Origin: Gemmatimonas sp.
Lineage (GTDB): Bacteria; Gemmatimonadota; Gemmatimonadetes; Gemmatimonadales; Gemmatimonadaceae
Length of the DNA stretch: 64,000 nucleotides
Assembly (NCBI GenBank): GCA_965279375.1
Contig: OZ257156.1
Location: 1,216,001 to 1,280,000 of the forward strand
Direction of reading: 5' to 3'
The notes below the pieces were generated by a model. That model was not told where the DNA came from, did not search any database, and saw only the letters and a list, made by a program, of their open reading frames with translations. Position 1 is the first letter of the stretch, and each line of letters opens with the position of its first letter. Shown here one piece after another: positions 29,898 through 52,909 of this stretch. A program made the position numbers and the translations under genes.

Positions 29898-29996
29898 CGA
29901 CGTGCTTGTGTTGGCGAATTGGTTGGCGTCGCGAATTGATGTTGGCGGCGATGGAATGGTGGTTGGGATCGCCGGCGGGTGTGTGAGTGTGGTGGG

Positions 29997-30980
29997 ATGT
30001 CCTCGTCGAATGATTCTCGCCCCACGTTGTTGCAGACGTTGCGCGATCGGGCGTCGGTGCGACGCTACAGTCCGCGGACCGTTACTGCGTACGAGCGGTG
30101 GGTGGTCGCGTACGTGCGGTTCCACGGTCGTCGGCATCCGCGAGAGTTGGGCGGGCCGGCCGTGCGCGATTTTCTGACGCATCTGGTAACGGTCAAGCGC
30201 GTCGCTGCTTCGACGCAGAACCAGGCGTTGGCTGCGCTCAACTTCTTGTACCGTGACGTGTTGGGCGAGCCGTTGGCGCCGCTGGATGGTGTCGCGCCGG
30301 CGAAGCGACCGCATCATCTCCCCAACGTGTTGTCGCGGAGCGATGTGCAGCGCACGTTGGGGCAGATGCACGGGGCACCGCGACTGATGGCGCTCTTGAT
30401 GTATGGTGCCGGTCTGCGCGTGATGGAATGTTGTTCGTTGCGGATCAAGGATATCGATCTTGAGCGGGGCGAGATCATGGTGCGTCGCGGGAAGGGGAAC
30501 CGCGATCGTGTGACCATGTTGCCGGCGCAGACGCGGGACGAAATCCTGGCGCAGATACGCGTGGTGCGTGCGTTGCACGATCGTCGGGTGGCGCGGGGCG
30601 GCGGCTACATCGTGTTGCCGGGTGCGTTCGACCGGAAGGATCCAACGGCGGCGCAGCGTTGGATCTGGATGTGGTTGTTTCCGGCGAGCCGAGAACATTG
30701 GGATGCCGAGCGTGGTCAGCATCGTTCGCACCATGTGCATCCGACCGTGGTGCAGCGGGCGGTGAGCGACGCGGGTCGTCGTGCGGGTCTGACGCAGCGC
30801 GTGAGCTGTCATACGCTGCGGCATTCGTTCGCGACGCATCTGTTGGCGTCGGGGTACGACATCCGGACCATCCAGGAATTGCTGGGCCACCGGGACGTGT
30901 CGACGACGATGTTGTACACGCACGTGTTGAACCGAGGCGGCCTAGGCGTCCGGAGCCCACTCGACGTCGACGTGCGATAG
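29997..30980 (+). CDS. intI: Integron integrase
   Basis: Tyrosine recombinase motifs YGAGLR, GKG, HTLRHSFATH, LLGH, TMLYTH; IntI-specific insertion (VLPGAFDRKDP..W.W.WLFPA); ASTQNQAL. Confidence 0.96.
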   Translation: MSSSNDSRPTLLQTLRDRASVRRYSPRTVTAYERWVVAYVRFHGRRHPRELGGPAVRDFLTHLVTVKRVAASTQNQALAALNFLYRDVLGEPLAPLDGVAPAKRPHHLPNVLSRSDVQRTLGQMHGAPRLMALLMYGAGLRVMECCSLRIKDIDLERGEIMVRRGKGNRDRVTMLPAQTRDEILAQIRVVRALHDRRVARGGGYIVLPGAFDRKDPTAAQRWIWMWLFPASREHWDAERGQHRSHHVHPTVVQRAVSDAGRRAGLTQRVSCHTLRHSFATHLLASGYDIRTIQELLGHRDVSTTMLYTHVLNRGGLGVRSPLDVDVR

Positions 30981-31254
30981 ACAGCAAACCTCGCACGTCA
31001 CCTCGACTCCCCTCGCAGCATAACCCAGCCACGTCGTGCCGACTTTCTAGCGCTCCTCCGGCCGACTACACAGCGATTGCACGCCGTTCCCGACAGCCTA
31101 ACCGTCCATCGATTCCTGGCGTATTCGGTGGCGAAGTTGGGGTGTGGTGGGCAGTTGCCGCGGTTCGGCGTGGGCAGCATGTTTCGGACTACACGGCGAG
31201 AACGACGAGCGAGAACCGGGTCGGTGCGGAGTGGTGCGAGCGGGAGACTTGGTG

Positions 31255-31271
31255 TCGAATGCTCGTTAGGT
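31255..31271 (+). other. Putative attI crossover (G/TTAGGT at 31265)
   Basis: GTTAGGTGGCGC is the exact reverse complement of the first cassette end GCGCCACCTAAC (32086-32097); no attC body upstream. Confidence 0.75.
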
Positions 31272-31310
31272 GGCGCTGCGCCAAAAAATGACCCCTTCCG
31301 AGATCCATGC

Positions 31311-32051
31311 GTGATTGACGATGAAACCGAGGCAGTCCTCCGCTCAATTTTCGATCCGAGTATGAGCGAGTCGGAGCCGGGCGACCTTGGCGAGACACAG
31401 CGGCAGCCCGTCTTCGACGAGGTACTCGAGCTAGCGAAGCATCTCGGCGCCGACGCGCCAGAGGAGGCGCTACAGCAGTGTTTATCGCTGTATCCGCATC
31501 TGCTTCTTCGGGCGCTGCCCACGGCCGGCAATGGAAATCTCGCTGTGCTGACGAAGCCTCCAGTTGGCACAAGGTACTGTGCTGACTTCGCAGTGCTAAC
31601 GTATGGTCAGGGCGGTTGCTACATAGAGCTTGTTGAACTGGAAAGAGCGATAGATCCGCTCTTTACCAAGGCAGGAACTCCGGCTCGCCGACTGCAGGGC
31701 GCGATTGGACAGGTACAGGACTGGCACCAGTGGATAGTGCCGAATCGAAAATCGTTTGTACGCGATTTGGTGAGCCGAGCAATGTCATGTCCGGTGTATC
31801 CGGCTCGCGCGGAGAACGGTAGCTTCGCCCTGAAGTCAGCCAATGATCTCGAAGCCGCTTGGCGTGGCTTCAGTGGATTTGATCACGCAAAGATCACTTA
31901 CACCGTAGTCATTGGGCGTTGGGGTCTTCTGTCCCGCGAAGATCAGGCACGGCTCGTGTTCTTGAATCAGGAGGGTTCCTGGCTGTGCGCAGTGCGCACG
32001 TACGACCAGATTGTGCGACGCGCGTACGACGGACCGCCAATCTTCTGGTAG
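31311..32051 (+). CDS. Cassette: Shedu SduA-like (DUF4263) nuclease
   Basis: EEALQQ.L..YPHLL, ADFAVL, ELVELE, LFTK.G, AIGQVQDW, VVIGR, TYDQIV; start GTG 31311 or ATG 31362. Confidence 0.8.
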   Translation: MIDDETEAVLRSIFDPSMSESEPGDLGETQRQPVFDEVLELAKHLGADAPEEALQQCLSLYPHLLLRALPTAGNGNLAVLTKPPVGTRYCADFAVLTYGQGGCYIELVELERAIDPLFTKAGTPARRLQGAIGQVQDWHQWIVPNRKSFVRDLVSRAMSCPVYPARAENGSFALKSANDLEAAWRGFSGFDHAKITYTVVIGRWGLLSREDQARLVFLNQEGSWLCAVRTYDQIVRRAYDGPPIFW

Positions 32052-32215: not shown

Positions 32216-33211
32216 ATGCCTCGACTTGTAGTTGTATTTGACACAAATGTCTATCGCGCCACGGCCGAGTCTGACTTTCTTGAAATGCGTCGACTGGAGC
32301 GCTCTCGCGGCGTGATCGGGTTCGCAAACTACGGCACCGTCGTCGAACTCCTCTCACATCTTGCAGCTCCCGACTCTTCTGATGGTCGAGCTTCCGCGGC
32401 TGGGGCAGCCCGCCTTGTCGCGCATTGCACTGAGTACGACGGGGCGGTCCACGTGGTTCGATTCATTGCTTCACCCCTGGGCCAAGTCACTCGATACCTC
32501 TTTGGGCACACGCCAGTGCAAGAGGAAGACGCGGATGGCTTTGGCGCAGTGCTCGGGCGATGGGTCCATGATCCTGCGTTCCGTGACAGCGCGATAGAGC
32601 TAGTGCAGGAAATTCGGGCGGAGACCGCCGCGAAGCGCGCCGCGTACGTGGAGATGCTCTGGGAGACAGTTGTAAAGACTGTCTCTCCACATGCCGAGCA
32701 GTGGTCGGACGTGGCAAAGCGGAGCGATCTACGGGATCAGCTGCTAGCCGGAGTTCGCGCCGGAGAAGGGGCCGCCATCATCGCGAACGGCATGGTACGC
32801 GAGGCGGCACTGGTTGCGGGTCGCGAACTCAGTGAGACCGAAGAACGGCGCCTGACAGACTCCGTGCTCGTGAACTTTCGAACGATGATTGAGTATCGCA
32901 GTCTAATCGTCGAGAAGCTCATCAGTGGCGGTCCTAACATGACCAAGCGCAGTCGCGCAAACGGCGTCTTCGATCAAGTCGTATGCGGCGCTACAGGAGG
33001 GCTCGCGCGAATTCGCAACTGCCCCGTGCTCGTCGTGAGTAACGATGGAGATATTCTAGAAGCTGCACGGAGGGCAGACATGACGCTGGAGATCGTGAGC
33101 CCGGAGGAGTATCGCTCCCTCCTTGAGCGCAATCCAGATGACTTCAATGATCACGTAACTGAGATATTCCGCAAACAAGCCGCTCGCAAGGTGGACGCGC
33201 CAGTGGTCTAA
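32216..33211 (+). CDS. Cassette: PIN-like domain protein
   Basis: VVFDTNVY at N terminus, VVEL, FDQVV, VSNDGD; stop lies in the attC TAA. Confidence 0.6.
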   Translation: MPRLVVVFDTNVYRATAESDFLEMRRLERSRGVIGFANYGTVVELLSHLAAPDSSDGRASAAGAARLVAHCTEYDGAVHVVRFIASPLGQVTRYLFGHTPVQEEDADGFGAVLGRWVHDPAFRDSAIELVQEIRAETAAKRAAYVEMLWETVVKTVSPHAEQWSDVAKRSDLRDQLLAGVRAGEGAAIIANGMVREAALVAGRELSETEERRLTDSVLVNFRTMIEYRSLIVEKLISGGPNMTKRSRANGVFDQVVCGATGGLARIRNCPVLVVSNDGDILEAARRADMTLEIVSPEEYRSLLERNPDDFNDHVTEIFRKQAARKVDAPVV

Positions 33212-33324
33212 CCTTGCGTTGGTGCAGACAGCCGCTCAGCGGTGCGCCGTGTAACTGCGGCGCTGGCGCGCCTCCGTTCACGGCTTCCTCTTTGAGCGGC
33301 TGCTGCACAACGCCATCGTTAGAC
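33206..33324 (+). repeat. attC site (minor 119-bp type)
   Basis: GTCTAAC...GTTAGAC; near-identical to 52791-52909. Confidence 0.9.
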
Positions 33325-36249: not shown

Positions 36250-36362
36250 GGCTAACTGTGCGTTGCTGCTGACAGGGCCTTCAAAGGTTGCGGCCAATTG
36301 CTCGCTGCGCTCGCTGGCCGCAACTTGTTGAAGGGCCCTGCAGCAGAACGCGAACGTTAGAT
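36250..36362 (+). repeat. attC site
   Basis: GGCTAAC...GTTAGAT. Confidence 0.92.
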
Positions 36363-37043
36363 GGTCCCATCGCGCGACGGCAACGGAGCGAGGCCCGCTC
36401 GGATCATTGGGGTTCGCCCGACGTCAGGGCGGCATCCGGTGCGCGGCCCCTCGTGCGCGCCGCGTGACGTCTGCGAGGACACGTTCAGCCATTGTGTGCG
36501 TACTCGTCGGCACATCGAACGATGACCTGCAGGACGCGCGCAGGTGGACATCACCGTCGTGCTCGTGGTCGCGGTCGTGGCGTGAGGCGAACGCGGCGCG
36601 CCGTTCAATCGTCCGAAGTCAATACATGTCGGTGGTCGGGAAGGGCCGCCGCACGGTCCTGGCACGCGATGCCGCGGCTGATCTGCGTCCATCGCTCCGT
36701 CGCTTTGTCGCGTTGCGCGTTGCCGTGCCTCGCGACACGATCGCGAGAGTCCGTGCCGCACCGCTGCATCAGCCGCTGGCGTGGTCGCACCAGACCACCG
36801 CAGTCGACGACAACGCGCGGCCCGCGCGACGGCGTCGATCCTCGCGTGGGGCGCGGATGCAGCGCGTGTGCCGGTTGCCGGTGACCGGTCTTGGCCGGGC
36901 GAGCCCCGCCGGCCCCGCGCGGCGTCGCGTGGCGTCAAGGGGTTGCCGGTCACTGCGCGCGTCACCCCAGCCCTGGCCCACGCGCGAGGCGCGGGCGACG
37001 AACAGGGTCGTGGACGCTCACAACAGCCCTGGGACCATCTAAC
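36356..37043 (+). other. Cassette without recognisable protein (candidate structured RNA, or Arg-rich ORF 36407-37042), copy A
   Basis: Homologous to 40853-41534; identical 40-nt block; conserved long-range complementarity. Confidence 0.5.
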
Positions 37044-37147
37044 AATGCGTTGCTGTTGTCGGCGGTTCCAAGGATGGCGGCCTTGCTCCCTTCGGTCGCC
37101 GGCCGCAACCTATGGAAGGCCGCCGCAACAGAACGCCATCGTTAGGT
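37037..37147 (+). repeat. attC site
   Basis: ATCTAAC...GTTAGGT. Confidence 0.92.
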
Positions 37148-37314
37148 GGCACGCGAAGCGCTTGCAGAAACGCAGGGGGGTTCTCACATTCCGTAAGGTC
37201 GCTGAGGCAGGCGGAGTTTGGACGTCCGCTCTTCCCTTTCGATTGCCGTCACGACGTTGGTGTTGGAAGCCAACGTCCTTCCCAGCGGCTTCGATTCGGT
37301 AGCCTAGGTGCGAA

Positions 37315-38139
37315 CTAGCTGCGTTGAGTGTCCGTTGCGTCTGATTCGTCGGTTTCGACCATTAGTTCGACTAGCGCCATCAGCCGTTTTTTCTCGCTAG
37401 CTGTTAAACGCTCTGGCAAGTCGATACTGACGGAGCGTCCCTGTGCCAGAGTCATCGACAGCACATTGCGCCCGACTCTGCGGCCTTCGTCGAGCCTGGG
37501 AGACTGTGTCGCTAAGTCTCCCTCAGTGCGCACGCTCGAAGTCGTGGGTGCTTCGGAGACGCGCTCCGCGGATACGGCGTCAGAAGGAAGTGACTTGGCT
37601 GCAGGATCGTCTTGACGAAGAAGAACTGCGTCTCTTGCCGCGGCGGTCCACTCGATTCTCGTCGGCTTCCCTCTTCTGCCGATCAAGAAGGATCCAAGAC
37701 CGGCGAATGCCGCGAACTTCCCAAATACAAACCCGCCCTCATCGCGGTTTGTCTGACTATTCCCAAAGCCGTGTGTGCTCCACCACGTCTCAATCCATTG
37801 TATGGGCGTCTCGCGTGATTGGCCGCGACTAAAGATGGCCTCCAGCAAGAGCTCGTAGGGTTGATATCGTAGTAGCGCCGTGCGCACCAAAGCCGGACGC
37901 TCCGAGGACTGAGCGAGCGCAAACTCGCGCCCGCTAGGCGTTAGCTCGCCACTGTCCGCTTGGAGAAAGCCGAGCCCTGAAGCCGCGGTAAGCGTCCCCT
38001 GGAAGCCTTGGGTCGGGAAATTGAGCGTCTGAATCTGAGCGAGATCCCGACCGCGAGCCCGAGCCTCCAGAAGCCGAACCAAGTCTTCGGGGGTTGTTCG
38101 ATAAGGGAGCGTTACGGCCCCACCCTTTTGATCATCCAT
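37315..38139 (-). CDS. Cassette (inverted ORF): winged-helix-like hypothetical protein
   Basis: Perfect SD TAAGGAGGTG upstream of ATG; LGFL..GELTPSG wHTH-like motif. Confidence 0.75.
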   Translation of the reverse strand: MDDQKGGAVTLPYRTTPEDLVRLLEARARGRDLAQIQTLNFPTQGFQGTLTAASGLGFLQADSGELTPSGREFALAQSSERPALVRTALLRYQPYELLLEAIFSRGQSRETPIQWIETWWSTHGFGNSQTNRDEGGFVFGKFAAFAGLGSFLIGRRGKPTRIEWTAAARDAVLLRQDDPAAKSLPSDAVSAERVSEAPTTSSVRTEGDLATQSPRLDEGRRVGRNVLSMTLAQGRSVSIDLPERLTASEKKRLMALVELMVETDESDATDTQRS

Positions 38140-38358
38140 ACGTCGCCACCTCCTTATCGGGGATCATAGCTCCAGCCCAATCGCTCCGCAACCCCCTTTG
38201 CGCAATCGGAGTTTTAATGGGCGTTTCTAGGCCCTTTGCAGACTGCGCCGATGCCGCCACCAAGCTGCTGAACGAATCCTGCCCGAGAGGTCCATCGCAG
38301 GACTGAAATTGCCCGCGCTCAACAGCACCCCAGTCGAACAGATCGCCGCTATCGTGCC

Positions 38359-38469
38359 ACCTAACCTTGCGTTGCTGCTGACAGGGCCTTCAAAGATTGC
38401 TCCCTTGCTCGCTCCGCTCGCTGGTCGCAACTTGTTGAAGGGCCCTGCAGCAGAACGCGCTCGTTATAC
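38359..38469 (+). repeat. attC site
   Basis: ACCTAAC...GTTATAC. Confidence 0.92.
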
Positions 38470-38533
38470 CGCCAACAAGCACCACGTTGCGATGAAGACA
38501 CGGGCGGCGCGTCGCCGTGCATTGGCTCCCGTG

Positions 38534-39520
38534 CTACCACCGATTGACGAGCATCTCCGCGATGCGCCCGATGGTGAGCTCGAGCTGCGCAAAGTCGCCG
38601 CGGTTCGCATTGGTGTACACGCTGATGACCAGCACGCCGCCGGGATAGACGATGACACCGACATCGCTGCCGGAGGCCGGTGAAGCGTCGCCCGTCTTGT
38701 GGGCGATGCGCACATCCGAACGATAACGCAGCGTGGCTGGCAATCGTGTGGTGTAGAATTGCCCGAACAGGTGGTTCATCATGGCCGTGCTGCTGGCGCG
38801 ATTCGCGTACTTCGCGGTGTAGATGCCTTCGAGCAGCGTCGTCATCTCGCGCGCGGTGGTGCGACCCAGCCACGTCGTGGAGTCCACGGCATACGCGAAA
38901 CGCCTAGCGGCGAGATCAGCGGCGGAGATTCCAGTGACGGGTGGCGCCCGGAATATCTGAACATTGCTCCACGTCGCACGCTCCGGCGAGGCCGCCGCCG
39001 CGAGATTGCGGAAGAACTGCGAAATGGTCTGCACGAGTCGCGTCTCACGGAACCCAAGCTCGCGCAACATGCCGTTGATGCGGTCCATCCCCAGCTTGAC
39101 GATCAGCGCTTCGGTGGCCGTGTTGTCGCTGGTGATGATCATCTGGTCGATCAGGTCCCGGTACGTCACGGTGGCGCCCGGCGTGAGACGTTTGAGCAGC
39201 CCCGTGCCGCCACGCATGTCCTCTTCGCGCAGCGTGATCCGCTCATCCAAGTTGAGTCGCCCGGCTTCGGCATCCCGGTACGCCAGCAGCATGATCGGAA
39301 TCTTGATCGTGCTCATGGTGTTCATCGGCTGGTCGGCGCGTACGTCCACCGTGCGTCCCGAGCCGAGATGGAGGGCCGAGATGCTTGTCGTCGCCGACAG
39401 GAGGTCGAGCTGGCGGCGAATCTCCGCGGTGATGAGCGTGTCGGCGGTGCGCGCCGCCATTTGTGCCCACGAGGTACGCGCGGACAGCAGCATCAACAGG
39501 GCGAGGACGATCGGGCGCAT
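38534..39520 (-). CDS. Cassette (inverted ORF): class A beta-lactamase-fold serine hydrolase, secreted
   Basis: Signal peptide; SxxK (STIK), SDN, KTG; no obvious Glu166 equivalent. Confidence 0.85.
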   Translation of the reverse strand: MRPIVLALLMLLSARTSWAQMAARTADTLITAEIRRQLDLLSATTSISALHLGSGRTVDVRADQPMNTMSTIKIPIMLLAYRDAEAGRLNLDERITLREEDMRGGTGLLKRLTPGATVTYRDLIDQMIITSDNTATEALIVKLGMDRINGMLRELGFRETRLVQTISQFFRNLAAAASPERATWSNVQIFRAPPVTGISAADLAARRFAYAVDSTTWLGRTTAREMTTLLEGIYTAKYANRASSTAMMNHLFGQFYTTRLPATLRYRSDVRIAHKTGDASPASGSDVGVIVYPGGVLVISVYTNANRGDFAQLELTIGRIAEMLVNRW

Positions 39521-39643
39521 GGGGCAGCGAGATGGAGGAGTGGGTGTCAAACGCGTGCACGCGCCGAACTTGCACTCTCCAAAAGCGTTGGGCTAGCCGT
39601 GGCGCTCTCCTCGAGATCGCACCCGGAGGATTGCGGCAGGGCG

Positions 39644-39754
39644 GTATAACATCGCATTGCTGCAGACAGGGCCTTCAAGGATTGCACGCTTGCTCGCTTC
39701 GCTCACCGCGTGCAACCTATGGAAGGGCCCTGCTGCAGAATGCAATCGTTAGGC
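39644..39754 (+). repeat. attC site
   Basis: GTATAAC...GTTAGGC. Confidence 0.92.
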
Positions 39755-40023
39755 AGCAGCTCGCCCGGCCTGAAGTACCCGCTAGGAGTCAGCGCTTCTC
39801 TCTGTCCCGATGAAGAACGCATCTGGCGGAGGTTTCAGGATCGCACCCATCCTCCTGCTCCGCGCGATGCCAGCCCTTGTGAAACGCGCTCCTACCCAGC
39901 CCAAACCTCTCTAGCACTAGGTTTCGAAGCGCCATCACGCTGAGCTGGTGTTCGTGTTCAACTAGCGGTAGAAGTATCTATCCCTAGGACCAAGCGCGAG
40001 CGAAACCTGCAAGCCCACCTGAT

Positions 40024-40752
40024 ATGAATCGAAGCCAAGCGGAAGCCTTAGTGCGCAAGCGTCTCCGTCCGGAGCTCCGCGATGTACTGCGGGTCGCCTC
40101 TGAGCTTGAGGGCGCCCTACGAGGCATTGTAGAACGTCGCGGAGACGAGGAGCCGCAGCAATTGGCGGGGGTGCAGTCCATTCTTGCTGGTCGACTTGCC
40201 GATGACCTTCGAGCGATGCAGTTGCTATCGCTATCTGGATACGCACACCAAGTAGCGTCTCTCGGCGCAACCGCTTACGAAGTCGCGTTCATTTTCGCTT
40301 ATCTGGGCGAAGACGCGTCGCGAGCACAAAGTTGGCTTGAGCACGAAGATGTGACCAAGCTCCCTTGGAAGCGTACCGACATGGTTCGTGAAGCAACTAA
40401 GTTCGCCTTTCCAACAGATCCTGCGGCAGGCTCGAAGCAGGAAGTATTTTACAAGTTTCTCTGTTGGTATAAGCATGCAAATCCCAATGCGCTGAAGCGT
40501 TTCGCACCGAGTCATAACGCATTGAGCCATGCGCTAAACTCTGATCCTACGTTCTCGTCCGCCCACCCCGACCGAGTTCGGTTGCTGCTTTCGCTTCGGG
40601 CGCCGCTTGTGGCAATGATTTCGCTGCTGCAACGACGGCTTCTGACCGACGCGGAGGCTGCAAGAGTCAGTTGTGCGGCTCGCCTGTATTTCGCCGCCGA
40701 GAACGAGCTCATCGCAACCGAACGCGCGTCAGGCTCGAACGCCGCTGCCTAA
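40024..40752 (+). CDS. Cassette: DUF5677/HEPN-like helical protein
   Basis: All-alpha; YKFLCWYKHANP resembles the DUF5677 Y..LS...H..P motif. Confidence 0.5.
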   Translation: MNRSQAEALVRKRLRPELRDVLRVASELEGALRGIVERRGDEEPQQLAGVQSILAGRLADDLRAMQLLSLSGYAHQVASLGATAYEVAFIFAYLGEDASRAQSWLEHEDVTKLPWKRTDMVREATKFAFPTDPAAGSKQEVFYKFLCWYKHANPNALKRFAPSHNALSHALNSDPTFSSAHPDRVRLLLSLRAPLVAMISLLQRRLLTDAEAARVSCAARLYFAAENELIATERASGSNAAA

Positions 40753-40859
40753 CAGTGCGTTGCTGTTGACAGCGCCTTCAAGGAGTGCGGCCTATTGCTC
40801 GCTGCGCTCGCTGGCCGCATCCTGTTGAAGGGCGCTGCAACAGAACGCGCTCGTTAGAT
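40747..40859 (+). repeat. attC site
   Basis: GCCTAAC...GTTAGAT. Confidence 0.92.
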
Positions 40860-41534
40860 GGTCCCACCGTGCGACGGCGATGAAGCGAGGCCCGCTCGGA
40901 TCATTGGGGTTCGCCCGACGTCACGGCGACATGCGGTGCGCTGGAAGTCGCGCAGGCCGTCTGACCACCGCGCGAATGCGTTCGCCGGGCGAGAGTGTGC
41001 CCACTAGTGAATCGGAAACGGTGCTCGAGCGGGTGCGCAGGTGTGTCTCACTCTCGTGGTCGTCCAAGTCGCGGTGCTGGTCGTGGCGTGATGCGAACGC
41101 GGCGCGCATCTCGCTCGTCGGAATCCGGCGCCTACCGGTGATCGGGCCTGATCGCGACAAGGTCGCGGCACGCGGCGGGGCCGCCGATGCTGTCTACCAG
41201 TTCGAGACACTTGATGTCGCGGCTCTCGCCCGATCGTCGCGCGCGTGGACGCGTCATGTCCGTGCGACCGCCGCCAACGTGGTCGAGCAGAACCAACACA
41301 CACGGCGACCACACGTGGCCTGCGAGCCGGCATCGCTCATCGCGTGCGACGCGGCTGCGACTCGTGGGCCGGTTGCCGGCCTTGGCCGGGCGAGCCCCGC
41401 CGGTGCCTCGCCGTACCGAGTGGCGTCAAGGTGTTTCCGGTCACTGCGCGCGTCTGGCGACGGTTGCTGCAGAGGCGAGGCGCGGGCGAAGGAGGCAGTC
41501 GTCGCTACTTACAACACTGCTGGGACCATCTAAC
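40853..41534 (+). other. Cassette without recognisable protein (candidate structured RNA, or Arg-rich ORF 40880-41533), copy B
   Basis: Paralogue of 36356-37043 with the same termini GTTAGATGGTCCCA/TGGGACCATCTAAC. Confidence 0.5.
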
Positions 41535-41639
41535 AAAGCGTTGCTGTTGTCGGCGGCATCACGGAGTGCGGCCATTGCTCCCTGCGGTCGCTGGCCGCAT
41601 CCTTTGATGAGCCGCCGCAACAGAACGCAATCGTTAGGT
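41528..41639 (+). repeat. attC site
   Basis: ATCTAAC...GTTAGGT. Confidence 0.92.
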
Positions 41640-41671
41640 GGCCCTCCAACCCATTGCTCGGAAGCCTTGAG

Positions 41672-42226
41672 ATGGAAAGCTGGCCTGAGCCACGCCGCAT
41701 CTTTCTGCACACATACAACTCACTAGTTCATCTGGCCGAGACAGTTGAGCATGGTCTTGTTGGCGTGCCCGAGAACGGCGCTGGGTCTGCGAGTAAGGCC
41801 AATCGGCTCCAGATTGATGACTGGGTACTGCTCCGCGTGACAGACCCGCTCTATCGCCCCGACCACCTAGTAATCGCGTCCCCTCTCCGAGTAATCGGAG
41901 CCCCCTTCCGGCAATCGCGGGAACCGCGAGATGCCCCGCGTTGGCCGGACCTCCTGTGGAAAGAGGAGAGGGAAGCAGGTGTCTCTCGCTACGGCTTTCG
42001 GATTCCGGTAACGCATGTTGGCACGCCGTTTCGGCAGCTGCAAATCGCCTTTGAAGATCTCGGGAATAGCGGTATCAAGGGACGGAATCGGAAGCTTCTA
42101 GAAGTCCCGAATCAGTGGGGGATCAAGTTCGTATCCAATGTGCTGGATGCGCGCTTCGAGATCGTACGCGTTCTCGATCTGTTGAGTCGCTTCTCGAAGG
42201 ACGCAGCCGGTACCGAGAACGGATGA
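41672..42226 (+). CDS. Cassette: EVE/PUA-like hypothetical protein
   Basis: LQIDDWVLLRV..RVIGAPF..LLWKEE..YGFRIPV resembles the EVE-domain pattern. Confidence 0.5.
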   Translation: MESWPEPRRIFLHTYNSLVHLAETVEHGLVGVPENGAGSASKANRLQIDDWVLLRVTDPLYRPDHLVIASPLRVIGAPFRQSREPRDAPRWPDLLWKEEREAGVSRYGFRIPVTHVGTPFRQLQIAFEDLGNSGIKGRNRKLLEVPNQWGIKFVSNVLDARFEIVRVLDLLSRFSKDAAGTENG

Positions 42227-42411
42227 GTGCCCTACGTGTTGTCTGGTCGACCTCGGAGATGAATCAGCTATCGTGATAGGCTCGCCGGCGAGACCTAGTT
42301 CTGCACGCAGGTATTGCTGATCGGGCCCGTGTTCGTAACATCCCTGACGGCGCTGCATTTCCCGTTCGCGCGGGAACAGCTTCATCTGCGATTCCGTAGC
42401 GGGGGAGGGCC

Positions 42412-42521
42412 ACCTAACCTTGCGTTGCGGCAGACAGGGCCTTCACGGATTGCTCCCTGTTCGCTGCGCTCACTGGTCGCATCCTATTGAAGGGCCCTGC
42501 TGCCGAACGCGCTCGTTAGAT
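42412..42521 (+). repeat. attC site
   Basis: ACCTAAC...GTTAGAT. Confidence 0.92.
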
Positions 42522-49057: not shown

Positions 49058-49321
49058 ATGCCCGATGCCGCCACGACCACGCTCTCATCCAAGGGCCAAG
49101 TCGTCATTCCCGAAGCCATCCGCGAGCGCCTCGGTCTGAAGACGGGTGCCCAGTTCGTCGTCGTGGCCGATCGCGACGTCGTGATTCTCAAAGTGTTGGA
49201 GGCCCCGGCGCTGTCCGAGTTTGCGGCGCTGACGGCGCAGGCGCGTCGCGTCGCAAAGGCGAGTCGTCTCAAGCCGGCCGACGTCCCCCGGGCGATCGCG
49301 AAGGTACGCCGCTCGAAGTGA
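49058..49321 (+). CDS. Cassette: AbrB/MazE-type antitoxin
   Basis: TTLSSKGQVVIPEAIRERLGL..G. Confidence 0.9.
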   Translation: MPDAATTTLSSKGQVVIPEAIRERLGLKTGAQFVVVADRDVVILKVLEAPALSEFAALTAQARRVAKASRLKPADVPRAIAKVRRSK

Positions 49322-49740
49322 ACGTCGTCCTCGATACGAACGTCCTGGTTTCGGGGCTCCTCTTCGGTGGCGTACCCGGGCGCATCCTCACCGCGTGGAA
49401 CGCAGGGCGTGTCACCCTCGTGCTGTCGCCGCCGATCCTCGACGAGTATCGCCGGGTGGGTCTCGAGCTCGCGAAGGGACGGGCGCCCCTCATTGAGGCG
49501 CTCGATGCCCTCCTCGCCATGCTCACCGTCCACGCGACGCTCGTGGACGCGCCCGCGTTGGCCACGCGCGTGAGTGAGGATCCCGACGACGACATGTTCC
49601 TCGCCGCCGCACTCGCCGCGCACGCGCGCCTCATTGTGTCCGGTGACAAGCACCTGCTGCGCGTGTCGGGTTGGGCGGGGATCGAGGTGGTGAAAGCGCG
49701 CACGTTCGTCGATCGCTATCTCACCCCGAGTGACGCGTAG
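49318..49740 (+). CDS. Cassette: PIN-domain (VapC-like) toxin
   Basis: VVLDTNVLVS, DPDDDMFL, IVSGDKHLL; GTGA overlap with the antitoxin. Confidence 0.9.
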   Translation: MNVVLDTNVLVSGLLFGGVPGRILTAWNAGRVTLVLSPPILDEYRRVGLELAKGRAPLIEALDALLAMLTVHATLVDAPALATRVSEDPDDDMFLAAALAAHARLIVSGDKHLLRVSGWAGIEVVKARTFVDRYLTPSDA

Positions 49741-52790: not shown

Positions 52791-52909
52791 ACCTAACCTT
52801 GCGTTGGTGCAGTCAGCCGCTCAGCGGTGCGCCGTGTAACTTCGGCGCTGGCGCACCTCCGTTCACGGCTTCCTATTTGAGCGGCTGCTGCACAACGCCA
52901 TCGTTAGGC
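52791..52909 (+). repeat. attC site (minor 119-bp type)
   Basis: ACCTAAC...GTTAGGC; near-identical to 33206-33324. Confidence 0.9.

Follow-up and report, generated by a model that had tools for sequence, protein, structure and literature searches.

A large integron array with three cassettes that lack a gene

The 64,000-nt window analyzed here (G000:C1:1216001-1280000, contig OZ257156.1, in the complete 5.3-Mb genome of a Gemmatimonas sp.; plain feature coordinates are window positions) reaches into a large integron cassette array, in which three paralogous cassettes without a recognizable gene, named A, B and C, were studied. The array is headed by an integron integrase gene (29979..30980, plus strand; TIGR02249, E 4.9e-115, above cut-off, and also matched by Pfam) and comprises 124 attC sites; 15 multi-copy families are represented among its 123 cassettes. 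Exact boundaries of 105 cassettes were fixed in an earlier pass, and most array controls use these 105. Integrons are on record for Gemmatimonadota (PMC8618304).

Cassette A (36356..37043, plus strand) has 688 nt and a GC content of 0.71. It opens with the GTT crossover of the attC site of the preceding cassette (36253..36358, plus strand, placed by attC profile matches and boundaries), and its own attC site follows at 37040..37143 (plus strand), the bottom strand of which folds into the long hairpin typical of such sites (DNA fold z -6.5, a value that none of 200 shuffles reached). Cassette B (40853..41534, plus strand; attC 41531..41635, plus strand) has 682 nt and a GC content of 0.68. A third paralogue, C, which the original prediction had missed, lies outside the window (G000:C1:1283614-1284330). 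The lengths of the three range from 682 to 717 nt, and all of them have the marks of integron cassettes, i.e., the GTT crossover, an attC site with R''/R' boxes, and a place in an array with an integrase; the bottom-strand fold was shown for the attC of A.

The attC sites in G000:C1:1247000-1396000 fall into two classes, of ~103-106 nt (100 sites) and ~112-114 nt (24 sites); A and B belong to the first and C to the second. The shared termini and attC variant of A and B described in the original prediction are present but not distinctive, as other cassettes show the same. The two attC sites are 84-85% alike, with other array sites equally close, and complementary termini of at least 10 bp occur in 81 of the 105 cassettes, of at least 14 bp in 14.

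Every sequence quoted earlier was found in its place, namely, the 40-nt block common to A and B (36387..36426 and 40884..40923, both plus strand), the 12-mers at 36409-36420 and 40906-40917 and at 36896-36907 and 41387-41398, and the flanking 7- to 9-mers. Further identical blocks of 23 nt (36890 and 41381) and 18 nt (36946 and 41437) were confirmed. Identity between A and B was 66% over the alignment and blocky, with a longest run of 40 nt versus a permutation mean of 14 (0 of 10,000), and a one-base phase shift separates the two across A positions 376-522. The interior of C was saturated relative to A, with an identity of 0.49 versus 0.47 ± 0.04 for shuffled C. A tandem repeat of ~16 nt, present in three copies inside C (region G000:C1:1284100-1284150), is a sign of slippage in unconstrained DNA.

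Islands of 15, 15, 10, 8, 8, and 7 nt were invariant in all three cassettes, whereas the longest run in 30 shuffles of C was 5-9 nt. Island X (36412..36421) lies in the 40-nt block, together with the best-kept part of the leader (cassette positions 38-68). Island Y, 15 nt, is found at 36898..36912 in A and 41389..41403 in B, and island Z, also 15 nt, at 36984..36998 and 41475..41489 (all plus strand), 31 nt upstream of the terminal repeat in A, B, and C alike. A 7-nt invariant block (36957..36963, plus strand) coincides with an inferred recombination breakpoint. Coding scores, permutations and shuffles agree that these are paralogous cassettes without a gene that carry non-random islands of identity, as had been proposed.

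The three cassettes are best explained as a small gene-less family that descended from a padded BrnT/BrnA toxin-antitoxin (TA) cassette, relics acting, if at all, in cis. We hold this reading with moderate confidence.

Coding potential of the cassettes

The best-segment coding scores of A, B, and C (7.4, 8.5, and 8.1 bits) were the three lowest of the 105 cassettes, and all three are gene-less in the sense of having no coding signal and no protein match. The working cut-off used for gene-less Vibrio cassettes, no open reading frame (ORF) above 150-210 bp, would exclude them, as long open frames are present. Such frames arose by chance in 12-45% of shuffles (any of six frames), and this cut-off therefore does not transfer to 70% GC.

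As the original prediction had noted, with the suggestion of an Arg-rich protein with an atypical start, one plus-strand frame has no stop between the GTT and the TAA of attC in A and in B. The chance of this for a given frame was 0.062 and 0.017 in shuffles, and the in-phase parts of A and B showed a slight third-position excess (47/45/68 differences). The protein nevertheless fails when the set is considered. A and B run out of phase over 147 aligned nt, C has a negative codon score and 4 stops in the frame, and one environmental record described below (run X6) has a one-base deletion in it, which at a depth of 2 may be an error. The dN/dS ratio was 0.65 for the long frame, while three pairs of coding paralogues had values of 0.14, 0.16, and 0.29, and the position bias over the whole A/B alignment was not significant (p 0.18). 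No homologues were found: the product of B matched only itself in two protein libraries and no family in Pfam, NCBIfam, or Atlas. The original prediction had named frameshifts or stops in homologues as grounds to reject the protein, and the phase shift and the stops in C supply them. A protein encoded in this frame is thus extremely unlikely, and the open frame with its third-position excess could faintly reflect a former coding sequence.

A Val-rich mini-frame, seen in six-frame translations and given a low rank as a candidate, has a GTG start and 13 codons in A (36544..36585, plus strand) and 16 codons in B. A peptide of 9-16 residues of the leader-peptide or micro-toxin type, set within long untranslated flanks, would account for the same TGA end in A and B and for length changes in multiples of three (9 nt in B and 12 nt in run X6). 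In C, however, the mini-frame has no stop, the lengths are unequal, no terminator follows the mini-frame of A, and in-frame indels would also be expected from triplet-repeat slippage. Peptides of 9-16 residues are, moreover, too short for a membrane toxin, and we consider such a product highly unlikely.

Homology of both ends to BrnT/BrnA cassettes

The A/B/C profile matched the first 93 nt of a fourth array cassette, which codes for BrnT and BrnA (PF04365 with PF14384). Its leader had 56.5% ungapped identity to the family, compared to 26.7 ± 3.9% for other cassettes. In A, the homologous leader covers 36356..36450 (plus strand; nhmmer E 1e-7, anchored z 5.6 and 6.7, and alignment). End-anchored leader alignments to TA cassettes gave z 5.4-7.1 for A and B and 2.1-3.2 for C. 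Among 86 genus genomes, the family leader was present in 2, each time on a BrnT/BrnA cassette, and it was found at 1 of 80 BrnT loci.

At the other end, the TA cassette ranked first of 91 over the last 110 nt for all three copies (z 3.9, 2.8, and 2.1). The motif ACAA, 24 nt before the cassette end (37020..37023 in A, plus strand), occurred in 4 of the 105 cassettes, the three family members and the BrnT/BrnA cassette of the array. In another BrnT/BrnA cassette, in L233, 13 exact bases are common with B at equal distance from attC; this cassette is without the family leader. The alignments show that the flanks of the family and of BrnT/BrnA cassettes have a common ancestry, with strong evidence for the leader (~95 nt) and moderate evidence for the trailer (~110 nt). 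With both ends matching a TA cassette, A, B, and C look like gutted relics.

Upstream of the BrnT/BrnA operon of L233 (L233:628-1500), which has a family-like trailer and an attC, lies a divergent AraC-like gene but no attC, an arrangement that looks as if it had been captured from or returned to ordinary chromosome. In a further genome (G433, L225:1628-1844), the trailer of a BrnT/BrnA cassette is interrupted by an apparent insertion-sequence end before any attC.

The BrnT/BrnA type II TA cassettes resemble the family in their homologous leader and trailer, the occurrence in the same array, and their length (746-755 nt compared to 682-717 nt). In contrast to them, A, B, and C have no intact brnT or brnA frame and no recognizable promoter-operator, and islands Y and Z occur only in them. 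Compared with the 3' ends of four brnA genes, A and B took ranks 0-4 of 66 (z up to 4.1), which hints at a remnant of brnA in these two copies. An apparent remnant of the brnT start in A was not significant.

Compact BrnT/BrnA cassettes occur in several other lineages, whereas the TA cassettes that share the family ends carry pads of ~100 nt and ~60 nt. Most TA-like cassettes in this array have long GC-rich noncoding leaders, and the pads of the other TA cassettes are their own and unrelated to the family. The simplest course of events would therefore be that a padded TA cassette decayed. The reverse, in which a gene-less cassette came first as a chassis and a compact brnTA operon replaced its interior to give the padded TA cassette, would fit the compact BrnT/BrnA cassettes elsewhere and the pads found where the family ends are shared. 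However, the unrelated pads of the other TA cassettes in the array indicate that pads need no chassis, the brnA hint in A and B points the opposite way, and all cargo found between these flanks was of one kind, which makes this order of events very unlikely.

Two further origins were rejected. Tn3-type miniature inverted-repeat elements have terminal inverted repeats with a target duplication; here, the bases flanking the two arms differ, and the leader homology crosses the would-be left end. An attC-derived interior was looked for in the cassettes and not found.

Possible action in cis and the cassette downstream

If the family arose by decay of a TA cassette, the toxin and antitoxin genes would have died while attC still let the integrase move and copy the cassette, and the interior would then have drifted. 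The islands would persist through selection on short cis-acting motifs and through recombination between copies. The most likely action would be that of an untranslated spacer setting transcription into the next cassette in cis, rather than that of a folded RNA in trans; such a spacer would damp read-through or supply a non-sigma70 start. Cassette translation is reported to govern polarity (PMC11511950), and by analogy an untranslated stretch of 680 nt should affect read-through into the next cassette. Most gene-less Vibrio cassettes are described as showing promoter activity, and some as coming from degenerate genes (PMC11014356).

The cassette behind B (41633..42418, plus strand, 786 nt, ORF 41654-42226) has a 100% identical copy directly behind C (G000:C1:1284438-1285223). 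Its 190-aa product had no match in Pfam or NCBIfam and is a candidate EVE-like protein from a high-probability EVE-domain lead in Atlas. That B and C each precede this same cassette was noticed post hoc (P 0.014, permutation). The three copies of the family have different neighbors, which suggests that the integrase moved them.

Several points weigh against descent from a TA cassette with a role in cis. The match to the brnA tail is noisy, in that the alignments of A and B fall into two registers ~30 nt apart, one of which must be spurious, and C ranks 51-65 of 66. No protein-level remnant of BrnT or BrnA was detected in the family (own profiles, none above shuffled controls), nor was any DNA similarity to the TA cassette over positions 96 to -127, although the comparison of A and B with C also fails centrally (z 0.8-2.0) and the central mismatch is therefore uninformative. 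The family trailer matched the BrnT/BrnA cassette of genome G109 weakly (z 1.5-1.9). Column-wise conservation in the family and in TA leaders was not significantly correlated (rho 0.17, p 0.13), and islands Y and Z, being specific to the family, are absent from TA cassettes. In a scan limited to the sigma70 type, no promoter was found in A or B; no terminator was found in A, and B gave only G-T-rich minus-strand matches. The role in cis itself is proposed by analogy.

Evaluation of a large structured RNA

The original prediction had centered on a large noncoding RNA or single-stranded DNA (ssDNA) structure, and a fold of ~600 nt closed by a helix between X and Y, perhaps switching to Z, was weighed as an alternative. 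The 12-bp long-range helix is real. Its 3' arm is at Y, and its position within the blocks that A and B have in common is unusual (26 of 3,000 shuffles, post hoc). The Y region was also the best partner of the leader cassette-wide in A and B (-64.0 versus -51.9 and -52.5 versus -43.3 kcal/mol), seven core pairs were invariant in A, B, and C, and Y was not inherited from the TA cassette. In the G109 TA cassette, a candidate 9-bp partner for the leader can be read off the sequence inside the trailer.

The helix as such is commonplace, since among 150 shuffles of each cassette, 52% (A) and 34% (B) contained a helix of 12 bp with no more than one G-U pair. The flanking helices had been said to differ in sequence and still pair. 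Their registers, however, differ between A and B, and with the core fixed, the comparison with shuffles was marginal for A (0.034) and unremarkable for B (0.73) and C (0.68). No covariation was found in the 12 core pairs (3 full-length and 5-6 leader sequences): no change was compensatory, three pairs are broken in C, and the covariation term was unfavorable (+2.57). The ends of the cassettes paired as well when swapped as with their cognate ends, and the full fold contained the X-Y helix in B only. Islands X and Y, X and Z (a 7-bp alternative), and Y and Z are all able to pair, at a complementarity not above that of shuffles (0.24).

Whole cassettes folded with z -2.15 and -1.28 (20 shuffles). 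With the generic termini removed, z was around zero, from -0.7 to +1.2 on both strands of A, B, and C (30 shuffles each), and local windows below z -2 were as frequent (4 of 86) as in eight coding cassettes (13 of 236). No Rfam match was obtained across A or B. The 5' arm of the helix is also kept in TA cassettes that have no island Y, which weakens pairing as an explanation for its conservation. Within the leader, a local hairpin formed by positions 44-49 and 61-66 paired in 26 of 30 cells, with covariation not beyond shuffles (313 of 500), and was rejected.

A lack of significant covariation and a folding energy no better than that of shuffles, which the original prediction had named as grounds to drop the RNA idea, were thus both observed within the limits of three sequences. 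Given the low power of three sequences, the structured RNA is graded as unsupported, and we regard it as unlikely. Quite unlikely, too, is a combination of the two ideas, in which a dead TA cassette would have been exapted into a cassette-borne structured RNA or switch, the leader having gained Y and Z as mutually exclusive 3' partners that control the next cassette, e.g., the EVE-like gene.

Recombination and persistence of the islands

The ratio of sites at which A agrees with B to those at which it agrees with C was 38:8 ahead of position 608 and 6:16 beyond it (p 2e-5 by Fisher test; 0 of 5,000 permutations). This sequence pattern demonstrates that the paralogues exchanged their 3' ends by recombination, A being nearer B before the breakpoint and nearer C after it. 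In the leader, positions 38-68 exceeded both flanks in 14 of 15 pairs, with one tie, TA-only pairs included.

Recombination is able to make islands, and relics without any function, whose islands are leftovers of patchy recombination or gene conversion between copies, would agree with the exchange among A, B, and C, with the saturated interior, and with the lack of the family in the relatives searched. Gene conversion has been proposed for Vibrio noncoding cassettes (PMC1382264). Against this explanation, separate islands of 7-15 nt remain invariant within saturated sequence, and tracts so short and scattered would fit selection better. Among TA cassettes of different genomes, too, no part is conserved as well as the leader core, and cassette and island spacings were retained (31 nt in all three). 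Complete loss of function is accordingly an improbable reading of the data.

Searches in other genomes and in metagenomes

Most genomes searched are fragmented, with arrays often unassembled, and the negative homologue searches therefore do not mean absence. BLAST of A in 200 genomes of the taxonomic family, among them the unpublished G034, which enters this tally alone, gave short weak matches only, and B had no match in the 86 genus genomes. The leader model, run in 150 genomes of the taxonomic family, found G109 and two weak matches without attC. The 3' pattern with three mismatches allowed was found in 0 of 400, and the 3' model gave nothing above 21 bits in 100 relatives. Four collection scans gave, respectively, chance matches among the matches listed, no match, 9 unrelated matches of 9, and 1 real match of 7, a TA leader. 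Metagenome searches yielded none and one chance match, two viral searches none, and plasmids none. A search with the trailer pattern, which was circular, returned 1 other exact and 4 two-mismatch matches compared to 2 control matches; one was read and was unrelated.

In the peat run X6, two 151-nt records covering 36374-36677 differed from A at 13 and 11 positions. They probably belong to a close relative of A and are too partial for covariation. Run X5 gave short chance pieces only.

Relation to known gene-less cassettes and noncoding RNAs

In Vibrio chromosomal integrons, paralogous noncoding cassettes have been described, for which the authors proposed selection and gene conversion as well as functions as promoters or RNAs (Boucher et al. 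2006, PMC1382264). Like these, A, B, and C are bounded by attC, have no database match, and occur in several copies in one large array. The Vibrio paralogues are given as more than 80% identical over the full length and are reported to show no pseudogene trace. In contrast, identity in the present family is at most 66% and confined to islands, the GC content is ~70%, and a TA cassette can be recognized as the source of the two ends.

In Vibrionaceae superintegrons, promoter cassettes (Blanco et al. 2024, PMC11014356) are likewise gene-less and lie deep in a large array. For these, promoter activity was measured and the degenerate example has a 90% protein match; the present cassettes differ in that no sigma70 consensus was found (A and B) and in the saturated interior. 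Transcription of noncoding cassettes is reported for one array (PMC2945992), and oral metagenomes are reported to contain promoter cassettes without an ORF (PMC6557892).

Large bacterial noncoding RNAs include OLE, GOLLD, ROOL, and HEARO. The family shares with such RNAs, and with the attC-like DUF1874 motif (PMC5737381), the length class and the lack of a gene. Large noncoding RNAs rest on covariation across many sequences, whereas A, B, and C show no Rfam match, covariation, or folding signal. To classify a cassette as a structured RNA, terminal complementarity and GC-rich helices must first be controlled for across the whole array.

The literature searched yielded no description of such a family; this covered few subscription papers. 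The island-type conservation, the traceable ends of a TA cassette, and the mosaic structure are new. As to the origin and persistence of gene-less cassettes, one Vibrio study is reported to have seen no trace of pseudogenes (PMC1382264) and another to have found a few degenerate genes (PMC11014356). Here, the ancestor can probably be named from the flanks despite the erased interior, and it would be a TA cassette. Toxin-antitoxin cassettes are usually thought hard to lose. The family would thus be a small case of the passage from a coding to a gene-less cassette and would show which short motifs survive it.

Other features of the array

The integrase gene and the cassettes are co-oriented, and a 324-aa ORF (31077-32051) is located between this gene and the first attC. 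Integrases are usually divergent from their cassettes. Two second-class attC sites, at 33208-33323 and 52793-52908, escape the main repeat family (128-nt repeat, 92% identical). Eight attC-like sites were observed outside the array (G000:C1:109650, 316904, 318316, 673930, 904952, 911824, 923843, and 3705122), three of them clustered and on the minus strand. The shortest cassette interior in the array (G000:C1:1247000-1396000) is at least 480 nt. A reverse-oriented cassette (38534-39550, minus strand) encodes a class A beta-lactamase-family protein (PF13354, E 5.9e-53), and the cassette at 49058-49740 carries a putative toxin-antitoxin pair, labeled AbrB-like and PIN-like from its translations.

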